A stretch of 64,000 nucleotides of DNA. It comes from Acidimicrobiia bacterium. Lineage in GTDB: Bacteria > Actinomycetota > Acidimicrobiia > IMCC26256 > JACDBD01. Below are positions 36,925 to 45,708 of this stretch, piece after piece (position 1 is the stretch's first letter; each line of letters begins with the position of its first letter). The stretch covers positions 2,903-66,902 of the forward strand of contig JBPCMN010000042.1 of assembly GCA_051002235.1 (NCBI GenBank), read 5' to 3'. A program made the position numbers and the translations under genes. The notes under the pieces are model-generated. The model was not told where the DNA came from, did no database searches, and was given only the letters and a program-made list of their open reading frames with translations.

Positions 36925-37385
36925 GTGCCCTCCTCCCGAACCGACCGGATCAGGCCACCGACGGCGTCGCGCAGTGATGCGAACGACACCGTTGCCGCCT
37001 CCCGCCCCCCGCCGAAGAGATAGGCGCCGCCCACCAGCTCGTCCCGGTGGGCGGCCACCGCGGCCCGCAGCCGGCGCCGGACCCGGTTGCGGATCACGGC
37101 GTTCCCGCTCGAGTGGGCGGTCGCGACGGCGAGGCGGGGAGGCGAGGCCGGGTCGCCGGGAACGAAGCGCAGCGTGACGACGCCCCCGGAGCGGCGGCGC
37201 GCTCGGGCGAGGGCGTCGAAGGTTGCACGGTCGCGGACGGACCGGATCAGGCCGACAGCCGGGCGCGGCCCCGTCGGCGCCGGGACTTGATGACGGCCCG
37301 ACCGCCGCGCGTCCGCATGCGGGTGCGGAAACCGTGGGTCTTCTTGCGCTTGCGGTTGTTGGGTTGGAACGGGCGCTTCACGCAT
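36921..37385 (-). CDS. rnpA: ribonuclease P protein component (maximal ORF; conserved core 36921..37250)
   Basis: Core [14 protein letters not shown]...[17 protein letters not shown] (RNR motif). No ATG/GTG/TTG in frame between the core and ATG 37385, so the canonical ORF overlaps all of rpmH out of frame. The alternative start is CTG 37250. Confidence 0.7.
37247..37381 (-). CDS. rpmH: 50S ribosomal protein L34
   Basis: Not in ORF track (44 aa). GTG 37381 to TGA 37247 encodes [53 protein letters not shown] lies 6 nt upstream. Confidence 0.9.
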
Positions 37386-37450
37386 GGCCTCCTCGCGGCG
37401 CCGGTCCGTGGTGACCCGAGGTGGGGGTCTCAGCGGTTGCGGACCGGAAC

Positions 37451-37755
37451 GGTGGATTCTACGGGCGGTTCGCGGGCGCTCGCAACGCGCCTCCCGGTCG
37501 CCCGCCGCGCCCGGTTTCCCCCGCGGCTACCGACCGTTGGTTGTGGACGCCTCCACTCGGACGCGGTTTTCGGCACGAACGCGCCCCTTGTCGCCGTGTC
37601 CGCCCGGTGCTACGTTCCGCGTTCTCGCCCGACGCCTCGGCCTCGTTCGGGCGCACTTCCCCGAGAGCCCAGCTCGACCAGGCCGCGCCAGCCGGGCGGA
37701 GGGGGCAACCGGCCCGCTCCATGTTCTTCCACACCTGTGGATGTTCCTGTGGACA
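37451..37755. promoter_or_regulatory. dnaA upstream region with DnaA-box-like sites
   Basis: GGTGGATT (37451-58), TTGTGGAC (37541-48), CTGTGGATG (37735-43) and CTGTGGACA (37747-55). The last two overlap the candidate dnaA start codons. Confidence 0.5.
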
Positions 37756-39152
37756 GTCGAGACCTGGGCGCGACAGCGGCCGATGACATCTGGGAGCAGG
37801 CCGCCGCGGTCCTCCGCGACCGCCTCGAGGACGGCGCGTGGAACACCTACTTCCACGGGGTCCGCTCCTTCGGGTTCGACGGCGATCGGCTCACGCTGGG
37901 CGTCCCCAGCACCCTGGTGGCGGAACGCATGCGTACCGCCTACGTCCCGCTGGTCAGCGAGGTCCTCGCCGAGGTGGTCGGCCACAAGGTCGACGTCGAC
38001 CTCGTCGTCGACACGGCCGAGCGGGACGACGAGCTGATCCGGCCGCCGGAACCGGTGCGCGTGCCCGCCACCGACCCGGGAGCCACCGACGCCGACCGGG
38101 GCATCTGGGCCTCGGGCAAGCTGATCCCCCGCTACACGTTCGACCAGTTCGTGATCGGAGCCAACAACCGCTTCGCCCACGCCGCCGCCCTCACCGTCGC
38201 CGAGGCCCCCGGTCGCTCCTACAATCCGCTGTTCATCTACGGCGTTGCCGGCCTGGGCAAGACCCACCTCCTCCACGCCGTCGGCCATCACGTCAAAACC
38301 GTGTACCCGACCAAACGCCTCCGCTACGTCTCGACCGAGACGTTCATGAACGAGTTCATCGACGCCATTCGCTCGAAGACCATGCCCGTGTTCAAGCGTC
38401 GGTACCGCGACCTCGACATGCTCCTCATGGACGACATCCAGTTCCTCGAGCGCACCCAGGAGCTCCAAGAAGAGTTCTTCCACACCTTCAACCAGCTCCA
38501 CGGCGACGGCGGCCAGATCGTCATCTCCTCCGACCGGGCACCGAAGTCGATGGACACCCTCGAGGACCGGCTCCGCAGCCGGTTCGAATGGGGCCTCAGC
38601 ACCGACATTCAGCCCCCCGAATTCGAGACCCGCTTGGCGATCCTGCGCAAGAAGGCGGAAGCCGAGCACTTCGACGCGATTCGCGACGATGTACTCGCTT
38701 TCATCGCGACCAACATCACCGACAACGTCCGCGAGCTCGAAGGCGCCCTCATCCGGGTGGCGGCGTTCGCCAAGCTCAACCGCGCGAGCGCCCTCTCGGC
38801 CGAGGTCGCCCACCAGGTCCTCGCCGACCTGCTCCCCCCGAAGAAGCCCCGGGTGATCACCCCCGAGCTCATCCTCGACGAGACCGCTCGCATGTTCGGC
38901 TGGACGATCGAGGACCTCTGCGGCAAGAGCCGACGACGCCCCCTCGTGACCGCCCGCCAGATCGGGATGTACGTGTTCCGGGAGTTGACCGATTACAGCT
39001 ACCCCCGGATCGCCGAGCAGTTCGGCGGCCGCGACCACACGACCGTCATGTACGCCGTCGACAAGATCAAGAAACAGATGCCCGAACGCACCGCGATCTT
39101 CACCCAGGTCAACGATCTCATCACCCGGATCAAGCTCGGCACCAGTGGATAA
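37737..39152 (+). CDS. dnaA: chromosomal replication initiator protein DnaA
   Basis: ORF 37047.. trimmed to GTG 37737 (or GTG 37749). Domain I DIWEQAAAVLRDRL, Walker A GVAGLGKTHLLHA, sensor motifs, C-terminal DHTTVMYA HTH. Confidence 0.95.
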   Translation: MDVPVDSRDLGATAADDIWEQAAAVLRDRLEDGAWNTYFHGVRSFGFDGDRLTLGVPSTLVAERMRTAYVPLVSEVLAEVVGHKVDVDLVVDTAERDDELIRPPEPVRVPATDPGATDADRGIWASGKLIPRYTFDQFVIGANNRFAHAAALTVAEAPGRSYNPLFIYGVAGLGKTHLLHAVGHHVKTVYPTKRLRYVSTETFMNEFIDAIRSKTMPVFKRRYRDLDMLLMDDIQFLERTQELQEEFFHTFNQLHGDGGQIVISSDRAPKSMDTLEDRLRSRFEWGLSTDIQPPEFETRLAILRKKAEAEHFDAIRDDVLAFIATNITDNVRELEGALIRVAAFAKLNRASALSAEVAHQVLADLLPPKKPRVITPELILDETARMFGWTIEDLCGKSRRRPLVTARQIGMYVFRELTDYSYPRIAEQFGGRDHTTVMYAVDKIKKQMPERTAIFTQVNDLITRIKLGTSG

Positions 39153-41951: not shown

Positions 41952-42096
41952 CGACCCGCCCGAGGGGCCCGTCCTACGCGTCGTCGACACACCTGTCTGG
42001 TAAACTGAGAGCAACGGTTTTAGGGGCTCTGACCAGGGGTTTCACCCTGAATCCGACCCTCGTCGGGTCCGCCCCCCCGACCCCGTCGAGACGCCG

Positions 42097-45000
42097 GTGA
42101 ACGTCCCCCCGGGCGAGTCCTCCGGCCAGAGAAAAAGGCGTTCTCGCTTGGCTTACGCGGCAAAAGACATCACCGTTCTGAAGGGCCTGGAGCCGGTCCG
42201 CGAGCGCCCCGGGATGTACATCGGGTCCACCGGCCCGTCGGGTCTGCACCACCTCGTCTACGAGGTTGTGGACAACTCGATCGACGAGGCGATGGCGGGG
42301 TACTGCGACCGCATCGACGTGACACTGCTGGCCGACGGCGGCTGCCGGGTGACCGACAACGGCCGCGGGATCCCGGTCGACAACCACCGCGACTTCAAGA
42401 ACAAGTCCGCCGCCGAGGTGATCATGACCACCCTTCACGCCGGCGGGAAGTTCGGCGGTGAGGGCTACAAGATCTCCGGCGGCCTGCACGGCGTCGGCGT
42501 GTCGGTGGTCAACGCGCTCTCCGACAAGCTCGACCTCGAGATCCACCGCGACGGCGGTAAATGGGAGCAGCACTTCGCCAAGGGCGGGAAGCCCCAGGGC
42601 AAGCTGCAGAAGGTCGCGACCTCGAGGAAGAAGGGCACGACCGTCACCTTCTGGCCCGACCCCCGCGTCTTCGAGGAGACCGAGTTCCGGGCCCAGACCA
42701 TCCTCGAGCGCCTGCGCGAGATGGCGTTCCTCAACAAGGGCCTCGAGATCCGCTTCGTCGACGAGCGCCCGCGTCCGAGGCTCGAGCAGACCTACAAGTA
42801 CTCCGGCGGCGTCGTCGACTTCGTCAAGCACCTCAACGCGTCGAAGGACCCACTGTTCAAGCGGGTCATCGCGCTCGAGGAGTCCTCGGCGAGCGGCGAG
42901 GTCGAGATCGCGATGCAGTGGAACACCGGTTTCCACGAGGGCCTCCACTCGTTCGCCAACAACATCGCTACGACCGAGGGAGGCATGCACGAGGAGGGCT
43001 TCAAGAAGGCCCTCACCAACGCGGTGAACAAGTACGCCAAGGTCAAGGGGCTGGTGAAGGACAAAGACGTCCAGCTGCTCGGCGAGGACATCCGCGAGGG
43101 AATGACCGCGATCCTCTCGGTCAAGTTGCAGAACCCGCAGTTCGAGGGGCAGACGAAGTCGAAGCTCGGCAACACCGAGATGCGGTCGTTCGTCGAGAAG
43201 GCCACCAACGAGAAACTGGGGGATTGGCTCGAGGAGCACCCGCCCGAGGCGCGCCAGATCATGGTCAAGGCGACCCAGGCCGCCCGGGCGCGCATCGCCG
43301 CCCGCCAGGCCCGCGACCTCACCCGGCGCAAGTCCCTCCTCGACTCCTCGGCGATGCCAGGCAAGCTCGCCGACTGCTCGTCGAACGACCCGAGCGAGAC
43401 CGAGTTGTTCATCGTCGAGGGCGACAGCGCCGGCGGCAGCGCCAAGCGGGCGCGCGACCCGCGTATCCAGGCGATCCTCCCGATCCGGGGGAAGATCCTC
43501 AACGTCGAGCGTGCACGCATCGACAAGATGCTCAAGAACGAGGAGATCCAGGCGCTCATCACCGCCATCGGCACCGGCGTAGCCGAGGACTTCGACGGCG
43601 AGAAGGTCCGGTACCACAAGGTGATCGTGATGTCGGTCGAGGGTGACGAGCCCGTCCTCCTTACCGACGAAGAAGGCCACCTGGAGCTCGAGCCGATCGG
43701 TCGGGTAGTTGACGGCTGGCTCGCCGACGGGATCGACACCCCCGGCATCTCCGCGGTGAGCGTCGACAAGATCAGCAAGCGGTCGCGCGTGTCTCCGATG
43801 AAGAAGGTCATCCGCCACCACTACCGGGGCTGGATGCACACACTCAAGACCGCGTACGGCCGATCGATCTCCGTCACCGCCGGCCACTCGGTCTACGTCT
43901 ACGAAGCCGGACGCATCACCACCCGCCCGGTCGCCCAGCTCGGGATCGGGGATCTCGTCGTCGCCCCTCGAAGGCTTCCGCGCGCCGAGCATGAGATCAC
44001 CAGCCTCGATCTCTTGGAGCTCTTCGTCGTCAACGGGCTCGGGCGCGGCCTGCGGGTCGACGGCGAGTCCGTCCGCCGGCGAAACGCCGACAGAGTTGCG
44101 GCGCAATACCCCGCCGAGTTCCGCGTCGACGATCGGCGTATGCAGCTTCCCGTAGCGGAGTGGAGGCGGCTCGCGGCGCGGCGGCGGGCGCTGGGTATCA
44201 CCCAGCAGCAGATGGCCGAAGCGATCGGCCACCGCCAGGCCTGCACGGTCAGCGAGTTCGAGACCGGCCGAACGAGGCCGAGCCGGGCCGCCTTCCGCGC
44301 CTACCTCGCCGTCGTGGGTGAGGACATCCCGGAGGCGGCCTTGGAGGCTCCGTCACGACTCGAGCGCTGGACCGATGAATCCGACGGTTCACACAACGCG
44401 CGGTGGCGCCGCGCCGGGCACTCGTGCCGCATGGATGAGTTGACCGTGGACGACCTCGTCCTGCTCGATGGTGAGGTGGAGGTTGTCCCCCAAGCTCATC
44501 GCGACAGAGCGTTCGGGCGGCACCTCCCGATCACCGAGGAACTCTGCTACTTCCTCGGCTGGTACGCCGCCGAAGGAACTACTGCCCGTCGTTCGCAGGT
44601 GGCGCTGGCGCTGGGCGAGGAGGACGCTCGATACATCCCCTCGATCATCAGCGCTATTCAATCCGTGTTTGGCGAGAACCCCCGGCTGCACATCGATCGT
44701 CGGCACGCGCGCTCATGGAAGCTGTACTTCCATTCTCCGCTGGCGGCGCGCCTCGTCGTTGCTTTGGGGCTCGGCGGCCACGCCCACGAGAAGCGTGTGC
44801 CGAACCTCATGTTCAACGTCAGCACCAAGTGTCAGACCGCCTTCCTCGAGGGGCTCTATCTCGGGGACGGCTCGAAGGGGTGTCAAGAAGGACGAGTGGT
44901 GTTCTCGACGGTGGCAAGCGCCCTGGCTACCGGCATTCTGTACCTCCTTGGGCAACTGGGCATCACCGCTTCAAGGTTTGCGGCAGCGGTTCCGCCCACA

Positions 45001-45708
45001 AACAATTTGGCGTCGGCGCAGACGGTGTACACGGTCCAAGCGAGCGGGAAGGATCAGCTGCTCGAGCTCGAGAACGTCTGGCGACGGGCGCCGAATGCCG
45101 ACCGGATGCGGAAGTACGCGACGTCTGGCCGACGCGGGTGGTCGAGATGGGTGCCCATCAGCGACGATCTCATGGCGCTGCCGGTGCGCTCGAATGTCGC
45201 CCGTCCCTTCAATGGGGACGTCTACGACCTATCCGTGGCGGACGACGAGAACTTCGTGTGCGGTCATGGTGGCGGGGTGCTGGTAAAAAATACTGACGCT
45301 GATGTAGATGGCAGCCACATCCGGACGCTCCTACTGACGTTCTTCTTCCGTCAGCTCCAGAACTTGATCACGCAGCGCTGTATCTACATCGCGCAGCCCC
45401 CGCTCTACCGCGCCGACATCGGCAAGGAGCGCCACTACCTCAAGGACGACGCCGCGCTCCGAGCCTTCGAGGCCGACCACGAAGGGCGCAAGCTCGAAGT
45501 GATGCGGTTCAAGGGCCTGGGCGAGATGGACTGGGAAGAGCTCAAGGTCACGACCATGGACCCGGCGACGAGGACGCTCCTCCAGATCTCGGCGGAGGAC
45601 GCCGCCATCGCCGACGAGGTGTTCTCGAAGCTCATGGGCGAGGACGTCGAGACCCGCCGTCACTTCATTCAAGAGAACGCCAAGGACGTCCGCTTCATCG
45701 ACGCCTGA
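42097..45708 (+). CDS. gyrB: DNA gyrase subunit B, interrupted by a 553-aa intein (650 aa after splicing)
   Basis: GHKL ATPase (LHHLVYEVVDNSIDEA), Toprim (ELFIVEGDSAGGSA). The motif YHKVIVM | TDADVDGSHIRTLLLTFF is split by the insertion. Confidence 0.95.
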   Translation: MNVPPGESSGQRKRRSRLAYAAKDITVLKGLEPVRERPGMYIGSTGPSGLHHLVYEVVDNSIDEAMAGYCDRIDVTLLADGGCRVTDNGRGIPVDNHRDFKNKSAAEVIMTTLHAGGKFGGEGYKISGGLHGVGVSVVNALSDKLDLEIHRDGGKWEQHFAKGGKPQGKLQKVATSRKKGTTVTFWPDPRVFEETEFRAQTILERLREMAFLNKGLEIRFVDERPRPRLEQTYKYSGGVVDFVKHLNASKDPLFKRVIALEESSASGEVEIAMQWNTGFHEGLHSFANNIATTEGGMHEEGFKKALTNAVNKYAKVKGLVKDKDVQLLGEDIREGMTAILSVKLQNPQFEGQTKSKLGNTEMRSFVEKATNEKLGDWLEEHPPEARQIMVKATQAARARIAARQARDLTRRKSLLDSSAMPGKLADCSSNDPSETELFIVEGDSAGGSAKRARDPRIQAILPIRGKILNVERARIDKMLKNEEIQALITAIGTGVAEDFDGEKVRYHKVIVMSVEGDEPVLLTDEEGHLELEPIGRVVDGWLADGIDTPGISAVSVDKISKRSRVSPMKKVIRHHYRGWMHTLKTAYGRSISVTAGHSVYVYEAGRITTRPVAQLGIGDLVVAPRRLPRAEHEITSLDLLELFVVNGLGRGLRVDGESVRRRNADRVAAQYPAEFRVDDRRMQLPVAEWRRLAARRRALGITQQQMAEAIGHRQACTVSEFETGRTRPSRAAFRAYLAVVGEDIPEAALEAPSRLERWTDESDGSHNARWRRAGHSCRMDELTVDDLVLLDGEVEVVPQAHRDRAFGRHLPITEELCYFLGWYAAEGTTARRSQVALALGEEDARYIPSIISAIQSVFGENPRLHIDRRHARSWKLYFHSPLAARLVVALGLGGHAHEKRVPNLMFNVSTKCQTAFLEGLYLGDGSKGCQEGRVVFSTVASALATGILYLLGQLGITASRFAAAVPPTNNLASAQTVYTVQASGKDQLLELENVWRRAPNADRMRKYATSGRRGWSRWVPISDDLMALPVRSNVARPFNGDVYDLSVADDENFVCGHGGGVLVKNTDADVDGSHIRTLLLTFFFRQLQNLITQRCIYIAQPPLYRADIGKERHYLKDDAALRAFEADHEGRKLEVMRFKGLGEMDWEELKVTTMDPATRTLLQISAEDAAIADEVFSKLMGEDVETRRHFIQENAKDVRFIDA
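43633..45291 (+). mobile_element. GyrB intein with LAGLIDADG homing endonuclease and XRE-type HTH insert
   Basis: Block A SVEGDEPVLL, block B TAGH, LAGLIDADG motifs YFLGWYAAEGT and FLEGLYLGDGS, blocks F/G VYDLSVADDENFVCG...GVLVKN followed by T(+1). Confidence 0.85.

Follow-up and report, generated by a model that had tools for sequence, protein, structure and literature searches.

What does an XRE-type DNA-binding domain do inside an intein? The question is raised by the DNA gyrase B gene (gyrB) in a 64,000-nucleotide stretch of contig JBPCMN010000042.1 from an Acidimicrobiia bacterium (the whole stretch is referred to here as the window). The gene is interrupted by an intein, and the original prediction placed an XRE/Cro-type helix-turn-helix (HTH) domain at positions 44140-44325, after the N-terminal Hint lobe of that intein and ahead of its LAGLIDADG core. 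It took the architecture to be unusual, while allowing that it might turn out to be already common among annotated inteins, knew of no HTH described in such a role, and suggested that the domain could extend target recognition or that the intein, once excised, could have a second life as a DNA-binding or regulatory protein; a Pfam scan, a structure prediction and a search for similar inteins were proposed as checks. We find that residues 173-230 of the intein are a true XRE/HTH_3-type domain, and we consider it rather probable that this domain is an accessory DNA-binding module of the LAGLIDADG homing endonuclease.

Read in the gyrB frame, forward-strand positions 44140-44325 translate to MQLPVAEWRRLAARRRALGITQQQMAEAIGHRQACTVSEFETGRTRPSRAAFRAYLAVVGED, and the peptide quoted in the original prediction lies inside, at nucleotides 44161-44319. 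As an isolated 62-aa piece, this segment scores 34.7 bits against Pfam HTH_31 (E 2.2e-8, gathering threshold 27) and 28.7 bits against HTH_3 (E 1.4e-6, gathering threshold 23), and within the full 1203-aa GyrB both models again exceed their gathering thresholds, at 31.7 and 23.4 bits respectively. The whole intein was modelled with AlphaFold2 from a 16-sequence alignment (mean predicted local distance difference test, pLDDT, 91.4; predicted TM-score, pTM, 0.86), giving a confident helical bundle with helices at residues 174-186, 191-197, 203-210 and 218-228, all with pLDDT >90, downstream of the Hint strands and upstream of the first LAGLIDADG helix at residues 302-314. For a separate AlphaFold2 model of residues 120-300 (pLDDT 93.1), the top 50 Foldseek matches in the PDB are almost all XRE-family HTH domains, with superpositions on P22 c2 (root-mean-square deviation 1.1 Å over 55 columns), the 434 repressor (1pra, 1.7 Å over 55) and HipB (2.0 Å over 63), and with further matches to C.BclI, C.AhdI, ClgR, DdrO and MBF1/EDF1. 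TM-scores normalized to the target are 0.6-0.76, and the E-values are only 4e-3 to 0.1, which is due to the shortness of the domain.

A profile of residues 121-298, made from 16 diverse family members and searched against PDB sequences, matches only XRE proteins (HipB at E 1.8e-5, P22 c2, HigA and 434 Cro), with matches confined to the HTH (profile positions ~33-133); in this search the flanking segments, 121-172 and 231-298, have no relative of known structure. The (T/S)(I/V)S..E.G...P signature is conserved as in the XRE family, and both the sequence and the helical-bundle fold are those expected of XRE/HTH_3 members (PF01381, PF13560). In all, Pfam, AlphaFold2, Foldseek and the profile search bear out the original prediction as to the identity of the domain, and Pfam and the model bear it out as to the location; the best boundaries are 44149-44322 on the forward strand. 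The predicted recognition helix (helix 3) of the AlphaFold2 model spans residues 203-210 (ACTVSEFE, 44239-44262, forward strand), with Gln202 just before it.

Relatives of the intein are numerous. When one genome per species was scanned, 391 species genomes proved to encode one; detailed statistics below refer to the best 80 of these 391, that is, the window intein and 79 homologues, and P and L numbers designate homologous proteins and loci in the comparison set. The 80 inteins are full-length (about 541-570 aa), all occupy the same gyrB site, and come from Actinomycetota, Acidimicrobiia, many Cyanobacteria (Microcoleus, Oscillatoria, Coleofasciculus, Anabaena, Calothrix, Laspinema and Snowella), Herpetosiphon (Chloroflexota), Blastocatellia (Acidobacteriota), Desulfonema and Dormiibacterota. 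At E<=0.01, Pfam Intein_splicing and LAGLIDADG_3 are each matched by 80/80, HTH_3 by 70/80 and HTH_31 by 66/80. The same insertion site is used in at least five phyla, with the module kept at about 40% identity. A protein search with the window intein gave 21 matches, mostly GyrB inteins at 30-68% identity, and every match covering the region retains the HTH.

The arrangement is also found outside gyrase. A profile search of 1.84 billion representative proteins returned 496 matches at E<=1e-30, and among the top 150, from which the architecture in other hosts was read, the order N-terminal Hint, HTH_3, LAGLIDADG_3, C-terminal Hint recurs in topoisomerase I (TopA) inteins (P0059, P0064, P0123), in a FEN1/XPG nuclease intein (P0060) and in phosphoglucomutase-family inteins (P0071, P0090, P0108, P0124), whose named sources, both bacterial and archaeal, include Patescibacteria, Nanoarchaeota and Thermoprotei. 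The architecture is therefore not the rarity it was first taken for, but largely common. The TopA inteins sit in the equivalent Toprim DxD motif (...A/SVDYxEP...HN/TDPDREGE, with slashes marking splice junctions here and below), the phosphoglucomutase inteins in an active-site loop (...A/SVDG...HN/SHNP), and the FEN1 intein has the C-terminal junction HN/TDYNPGG. They belong to the same intein clade, these members having an S-V-D-x-x-E-P start and the HTH ahead of the endonuclease, and their occurrence at these sites suggests that the clade has jumped between similar motifs of different genes. Recognition helices differ by target, being KQPITISHWE or RQACTVSEFE in GyrB inteins, SQSNISEWE in TopA inteins and SPTTIQRIE in phosphoglucomutase inteins.

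Some inteins at the same gyrB site have no HTH (P0047, P0057, P0061, P0066 and P0079), and P0036 has a degenerate copy only. The HTH module is thus optional, as well as widespread and recurrent, and in this it behaves like an accessory domain. No phage source was found when residues 121-480 were compared by tblastn with 50,697 phage records. Several side observations concern these relatives. XRE-like HTHs placed after the endonuclease occur in a dCTP deaminase intein (P0021) and, two in tandem each, in P0076 (source label Mcm) and P0171; the post-endonuclease HTH region of P0076 has no sequence match to the accessory domain of TliVMA and matches P22 c2 weakly. The domain is already picked up by automated annotation, PF13560 and PF01381 standing in precomputed domain lists. 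NCBI titles the intein-split TopA fragment P0059 (MBU3956901.1) a 'helix-turn-helix domain-containing protein', a product name that is driven by the HTH of the intein, and this annotation artefact probably recurs elsewhere. The gyrB intein at L006:3001-4655, on contig CAWAJR010000005.1 of a metagenome-assembled genome, is frameshifted (the match length cannot be divided by 3, and the translation has 7 stops), so that the called protein P0001 begins within the intein; either the assembly is wrong here or the copy is decaying.

Several residues of the HTH domain are fully or almost fully conserved. W177, R184, A195, Q202, E210 and Y224 are invariant (80/80), and S207 and P216 are each retained in 79/80; if the domain works as the 434 and P22 repressors do, Q202 would be a base-contacting position. 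Ratios of nonsynonymous to synonymous substitution (dN/dS, Nei-Gojobori, 102 pairs with 0.15<dS<1.2) are 0.23 in both the HTH and the post-HTH segment, 0.24 in the endonuclease, and 0.21 and 0.13 in the N-terminal and C-terminal Hint lobes, respectively. The catalytic residues E314, D412 and K387 are all retained in 77/80 inteins, that of the window included.

The host gene is an open reading frame (ORF) of 1203 aa with one intein, at 42097-45708 on the forward strand, recognized in the ORF list and by its Pfam domains HATPase_c, DNA_gyraseB, a split Toprim and DNA_gyraseB_C; it scores 893 bits against the NCBIfam gyrB model TIGR01059 and belongs to the origin-region cluster dnaA-dnaN-recF-gyrB-gyrA, whose other genes were identified in the window. 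The intein itself has 553 aa, from Ser1 (SVEGDEP...) to ...GGVLVKN, and occupies 43633-45291 on the forward strand, as defined by extein continuity and by alignment with the 79 homologues. It interrupts the Toprim domain directly before the DxD motif (...KVIVM/SVEGDEP...GGVLVKN/TDADVDGSHI...), and the empty-site junction of an intein-less gyrB reads ...CGGTACCACAAGGTGATCGTGATG/ACTGACGCTGATGTAGATGGC.... Intein_splicing, LAGLIDADG_3, HTH_31 and HTH_3 all exceed their Pfam gathering thresholds, and NCBIfam intein_Nterm and intein_Cterm are likewise matched above threshold.

Within the intein, on the forward strand throughout, the N-terminal Hint lobe (residues 1-120, 43633-43992, block B TAGHS) aligns with PI-PkoII (residues 34-140) and contains modelled beta strands over residues 7-112. 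It is followed by a pre-HTH segment of beta-alpha-beta-alpha-beta structure in the AlphaFold2 model (121-172, 43993-44148), which is conserved across the family, by the HTH domain, and by a post-HTH segment of mixed beta and alpha structure that runs into the endonuclease in the models (231-298, 44323-44526). The single-chain LAGLIDADG endonuclease core (299-480, 44527-45072) was assigned by Pfam LAGLIDADG_3 and by alignment with the PI-PkoII endonuclease, and carries motif 1, LCYFLGWYAAEGT, at 44542-44580 with catalytic E314 and motif 2, FLEGLYLGDGS, at 44842-44874 with catalytic D412. The linker and C-terminal Hint lobe (481-553, 45073-45291, blocks F/G VYDLSVADDENFVCG...VLVKN), placed by alignment and model, complete the intein. 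Sequence alignment with PI-PkoII covers the N-terminal Hint and the endonuclease with the C-terminal Hint, and leaves residues 131-298 unaligned. The best Foldseek matches of the whole-intein model in the PDB are PI-TkoII (2cw7, E 2e-31), TliVMA (7qss), PI-PfuI (1dq3), PhoVMA (7qst) and PI-SceI, and the fold also matches I-DmoI.

The residues of a class 1 intein are in place (Ser1, T82-A-G-H85, Asn553 and Thr+1), with oxygen nucleophiles, Ser1 and Thr+1, at the two splice junctions; across the family, S1 is found in 78/79 and T, S or C at +1 in 79/79. The penultimate His is missing from the window intein, which ends K-N (45286-45294, VKN/T), as against HN in 61 relatives, KN in 15, RN in 2 and EN in 1 (n=79). 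Since active inteins without a penultimate His exist, this Lys does not exclude membership of class 1. The intein is predicted to splice, gyrB being an essential gene in most cases and its reading frame continuing unbroken across the insertion. On the endonuclease side, the segments ...GWYAAEG (E314) and ...LYLGDG (D412), together with K387 and the canonical Hint insertion site, identify a nested single-chain LAGLIDADG enzyme.

Signs of mobility accompany the intact catalytic residues. G+C content at third codon positions (GC3) is 0.81 in the intein and lowest, 0.77, in its endonuclease part, compared with 0.94 in the gyrB N-extein, 0.92 in gyrA and 0.92 in recF; this lower GC3 relative to the host gene suggests that the window intein was horizontally acquired. 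The first ~25 codons of the C-extein (45292-45366, forward strand), picked out by codon list and GC3, are atypical for the genome (ACT GAC GCT GAT GTA GAT ... CTA ... CGT ... TTG), with ACT, GCT, GAT, GTA, CTA, CGT and TTG being rare in it; they may represent a co-conversion tract left by homing. Site-specific homing cleavage would fit, indirectly, with the insertion site shared by at least five phyla, the GC3 of the intein and the unusual C-extein codons. Flanks of the homing site, compared at 79 loci, are conserved, which is due mainly to their coding for the Toprim motif, and any link between them and HTH variants is confounded by G+C content.

HTH-like domains have a precedent in archaeal inteins. 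Beyer & Iwai 2022 (PMC8966425), the only directly relevant literature on HTHs in inteins that we found, describe accessory domains in TliVMA and PI-TkoII as similar to HTH proteins, comparing them with the 434 repressor, and report that deleting or grafting the TliVMA domain altered the choice of cut sites; that domain made the enzyme more promiscuous, lowering its specificity. The window intein resembles these systems (TliVMA 7qss, PI-TkoII/PI-PkoII 2cw7) in having an extra small helical domain of DNA-binding type on a Hint and LAGLIDADG intein, and PI-TkoII is its best PDB match by both sequence and fold. The archaeal accessory domains are variable, can be swapped between related inteins, and alter cleavage when changed (PMC8966425); the window HTH is likewise small, of XRE fold and dispensable, being absent from some inteins at the same gyrB site. 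It differs in position, as the published domains follow the endonuclease and precede the C-terminal Hint, whereas the window HTH, part of a module of ~180 residues, lies between the N-terminal Hint and the endonuclease (173-230 preceding 299-480); the HTHs of P0021, P0076 and P0171 hold the published position. It differs also in being assignable to Pfam HTH_3/HTH_31 by sequence, an assignment that PMC8966425 does not report for the archaeal domains, and in belonging to a bacterial, mesophilic family rather than to archaeal inteins. Neither 2cw7 nor 7qss is among the top 50 Foldseek matches of the 120-300 module, no sequence similarity to either was found outside the Hint and endonuclease regions, and a likeness of the 121-298 module to 'domain IV' of PI-TkoII could not be demonstrated by profile against PDB sequences.

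The DNA recognition region (DRR) of PI-SceI, the yeast VMA1 intein, offers a functional model, since it too is an added region N-terminal to the endonuclease core and contacts DNA, extending the recognized site past the LAGLIDADG footprint according to the summary in PMC8966425. In structure the two are unlike: the 120-300 module has no PI-SceI chain in its 50 best Foldseek matches, and PI-SceI matches the full intein model weakly (TM about 0.39). With the XRE family (434 repressor/Cro, P22 c2, HipB, C-proteins, MBF1) the domain shares Pfam scores, a fold superposing at 1-2 Å and the signature, but those proteins carry the HTH free-standing or N-terminal and act mostly as dimers on palindromic operators, whereas here a single HTH is nested in an enzyme. 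WhiA likewise joins a LAGLIDADG scaffold, which is structurally matched here (8dy9_I, 8dy7_I), with an HTH. It is no intein, and the window intein, unlike it, keeps its catalytic residues and looks mobile; WhiA has lost the catalytic residues, carries an HTH of another type at its C-terminus, and is inherited vertically.

The original prediction's statement that no HTH had been described in such a role thus gives way for the archaeal TliVMA and PI-TkoII domains, and stands for GyrB inteins: the searchable literature yielded no account of an XRE-type HTH within a GyrB intein or in a position N-terminal to the endonuclease. A large intein survey lists GyrB inteins in Actinobacteria and Cyanobacteria and has no HTH terms in its text (PMC4760082). 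What is new here is the position of the HTH N-terminal to the endonuclease and its assignment to a sequence family, as HTH-like accessory domains of inteins are already known; an intein with an HTH will not surprise a specialist, and this is no new kind of system.

Taken together, the true XRE fold, a dN/dS matching that of the endonuclease, intact catalytic residues and the invariant Q202 favour an accessory DNA-binding module, so that extended or modulated target recognition is, of the roles considered, the most plausible. In this model, the intein would excise itself after translation of GyrB, and the freed protein would bind the Toprim-coding site of a gyrB allele that lacks the intein, where the LAGLIDADG saddle would cleave. 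The XRE-type HTH, present once and fixed by a rigid scaffold on the N-terminal side of the endonuclease core, would touch flanking DNA, and its contacts may add affinity or may lengthen or tune the recognized site, as the PI-SceI DRR and the TliVMA accessory domain do in their systems. Values of pLDDT between 84 and 96 across residues 120-300 of the whole-intein model, with the pTM of 0.86, suggest a fixed arrangement rather than a floppy tether. The HTH thus has a defined identity and position, is conserved, and co-occurs with an intact endonuclease; that it binds DNA, and that this affects cleavage, we infer.

Several points weigh against this reading. On their palindromic sites XRE domains mostly work in pairs; one HTH alone would make half-site contact only. 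The differences in recognition helix between targets could mirror phylogenetic distance instead of adaptation to the target. The catalytic-residue mutants L019, L067 and L079, as well as P0005, in which both acidic residues are lost, keep a high-scoring HTH, which could mean that these enzymes were inactivated recently or that the HTH has a function apart from cleavage. Finally, since the accessory domain of TliVMA lowered specificity, 'extends recognition' is perhaps too simple a description.

Of the alternatives, the one that survives best, although we think it unlikely, is that the HTH is a structural element that braces the endonuclease against the Hint domain, or that aids folding or splicing, and makes no meaningful contact with DNA. 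Such a role would suit the placement of the HTH between two conserved segments (121-172 and 231-298) that are confidently modelled with it as one compact unit, and in some inteins the orientation of the Hint subdomains is reportedly stabilized by domains nested where the endonuclease is inserted (PMC6801210); purifying selection alone cannot tell scaffolding from DNA binding. However, the invariant residues comprise not only core positions but also Gln202 at the start of the recognition helix, inteins at the same site do without the HTH, so that inteins of this type can fold and splice in its absence, and every close structural relative of the domain binds DNA.

It is improbable that the excised intein, made one-for-one with GyrB, acts as a regulator at operator-like sites, for example at gyrB/gyrA or the origin. 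XRE domains are typical repressors, and WhiA reportedly illustrates how a transcription factor can arise from a LAGLIDADG scaffold joined to an HTH; the few inteins that retain the HTH with dead catalytic residues would also fit. Against this, catalytic residues intact in 77/80 fit a mobile, not a domesticated, element, and the family is scattered over distant phyla, with the same module in inteins of unrelated host genes; the GC3 of the window intein (0.81 versus 0.94 in the host gene) suggests horizontal arrival. There is one HTH per chain with no evident dimerization element, and no free-standing copy of the module was found. The search for an operator-like palindrome between recF and gyrB gave only weak, imperfect inverted repeats, which we rejected as regulatory evidence, such repeats being expected in DNA of 71% G+C. 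The second life suggested for the excised intein is therefore unsupported.

A third possibility, to which we assign even less weight, is that the HTH binds DNA while still in the unspliced GyrB precursor, coupling gyrase maturation to the state of the DNA through conditional protein splicing. Splicing triggered by a substrate of the host protein is known, as cited in PMC8987985, for the Pyrococcus horikoshii RadA intein and single-stranded DNA, and the window intein occupies the catalytic Toprim motif of a DNA-handling enzyme, with related inteins in the equivalent motif of TopA. Nevertheless, the module is also present in inteins of phosphoglucomutase, an enzyme that does not act on DNA, and the intact endonuclease accompanying the HTH provides a simpler explanation. 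More generally, a domain that reads DNA for the benefit of the host, whether by DNA-gated splicing in gyrase B and the related TopA or as a regulator made in step with gyrase, would explain why the HTH persists in endonuclease-dead inteins, but we regard this too as improbable. Scaffold, regulator and DNA-gated splicing are each less economical than an accessory module of the endonuclease. Lastly, chance resemblance in an Arg/Ala-rich, high-G+C coding region can be dismissed, for although the window version is very rich in Arg and Ala (WRRLAARRRALG...) and its HTH_3 score in full GyrB barely passes the threshold (23.4 against 23), two Pfam models exceed their thresholds, low-G+C cyanobacterial homologues score better (best HTH_3 E 1.8e-8), the independent family profile matches HipB and P22 c2, and the predicted fold superposes on XRE domains at 1-2 Å.

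Two further observations concern gene calls in the window. The dnaA ORF (37047-39152) is listed as 701 aa, yet its DnaA_N domain starts only at residue 247, so that the start codon may lie well downstream, or else a long low-complexity N-terminal extension may be present. Long ORFs overlap gyrB in antisense and in other frames, for example one of 752 aa at 41974-44232 on the reverse strand; these look like ordinary stop-poor artefacts of DNA with 71% G+C, not genes.

For annotation, the nested HTH accounts for the label 'helix-turn-helix domain-containing protein' on some gyrase, topoisomerase and phosphoglucomutase genes. If the HTH is indeed an accessory DNA-binding module, this family would represent a natural and widespread fusion of a LAGLIDADG meganuclease to a well-understood, engineerable DNA-binding fold, with hundreds of variants, several target genes and matched same-site relatives that lack the module. 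It would then provide a comparative system for how accessory domains control the length and specificity of homing targets, and how inteins move to new sites, a question posed by structural work on archaeal inteins from a few structures only.

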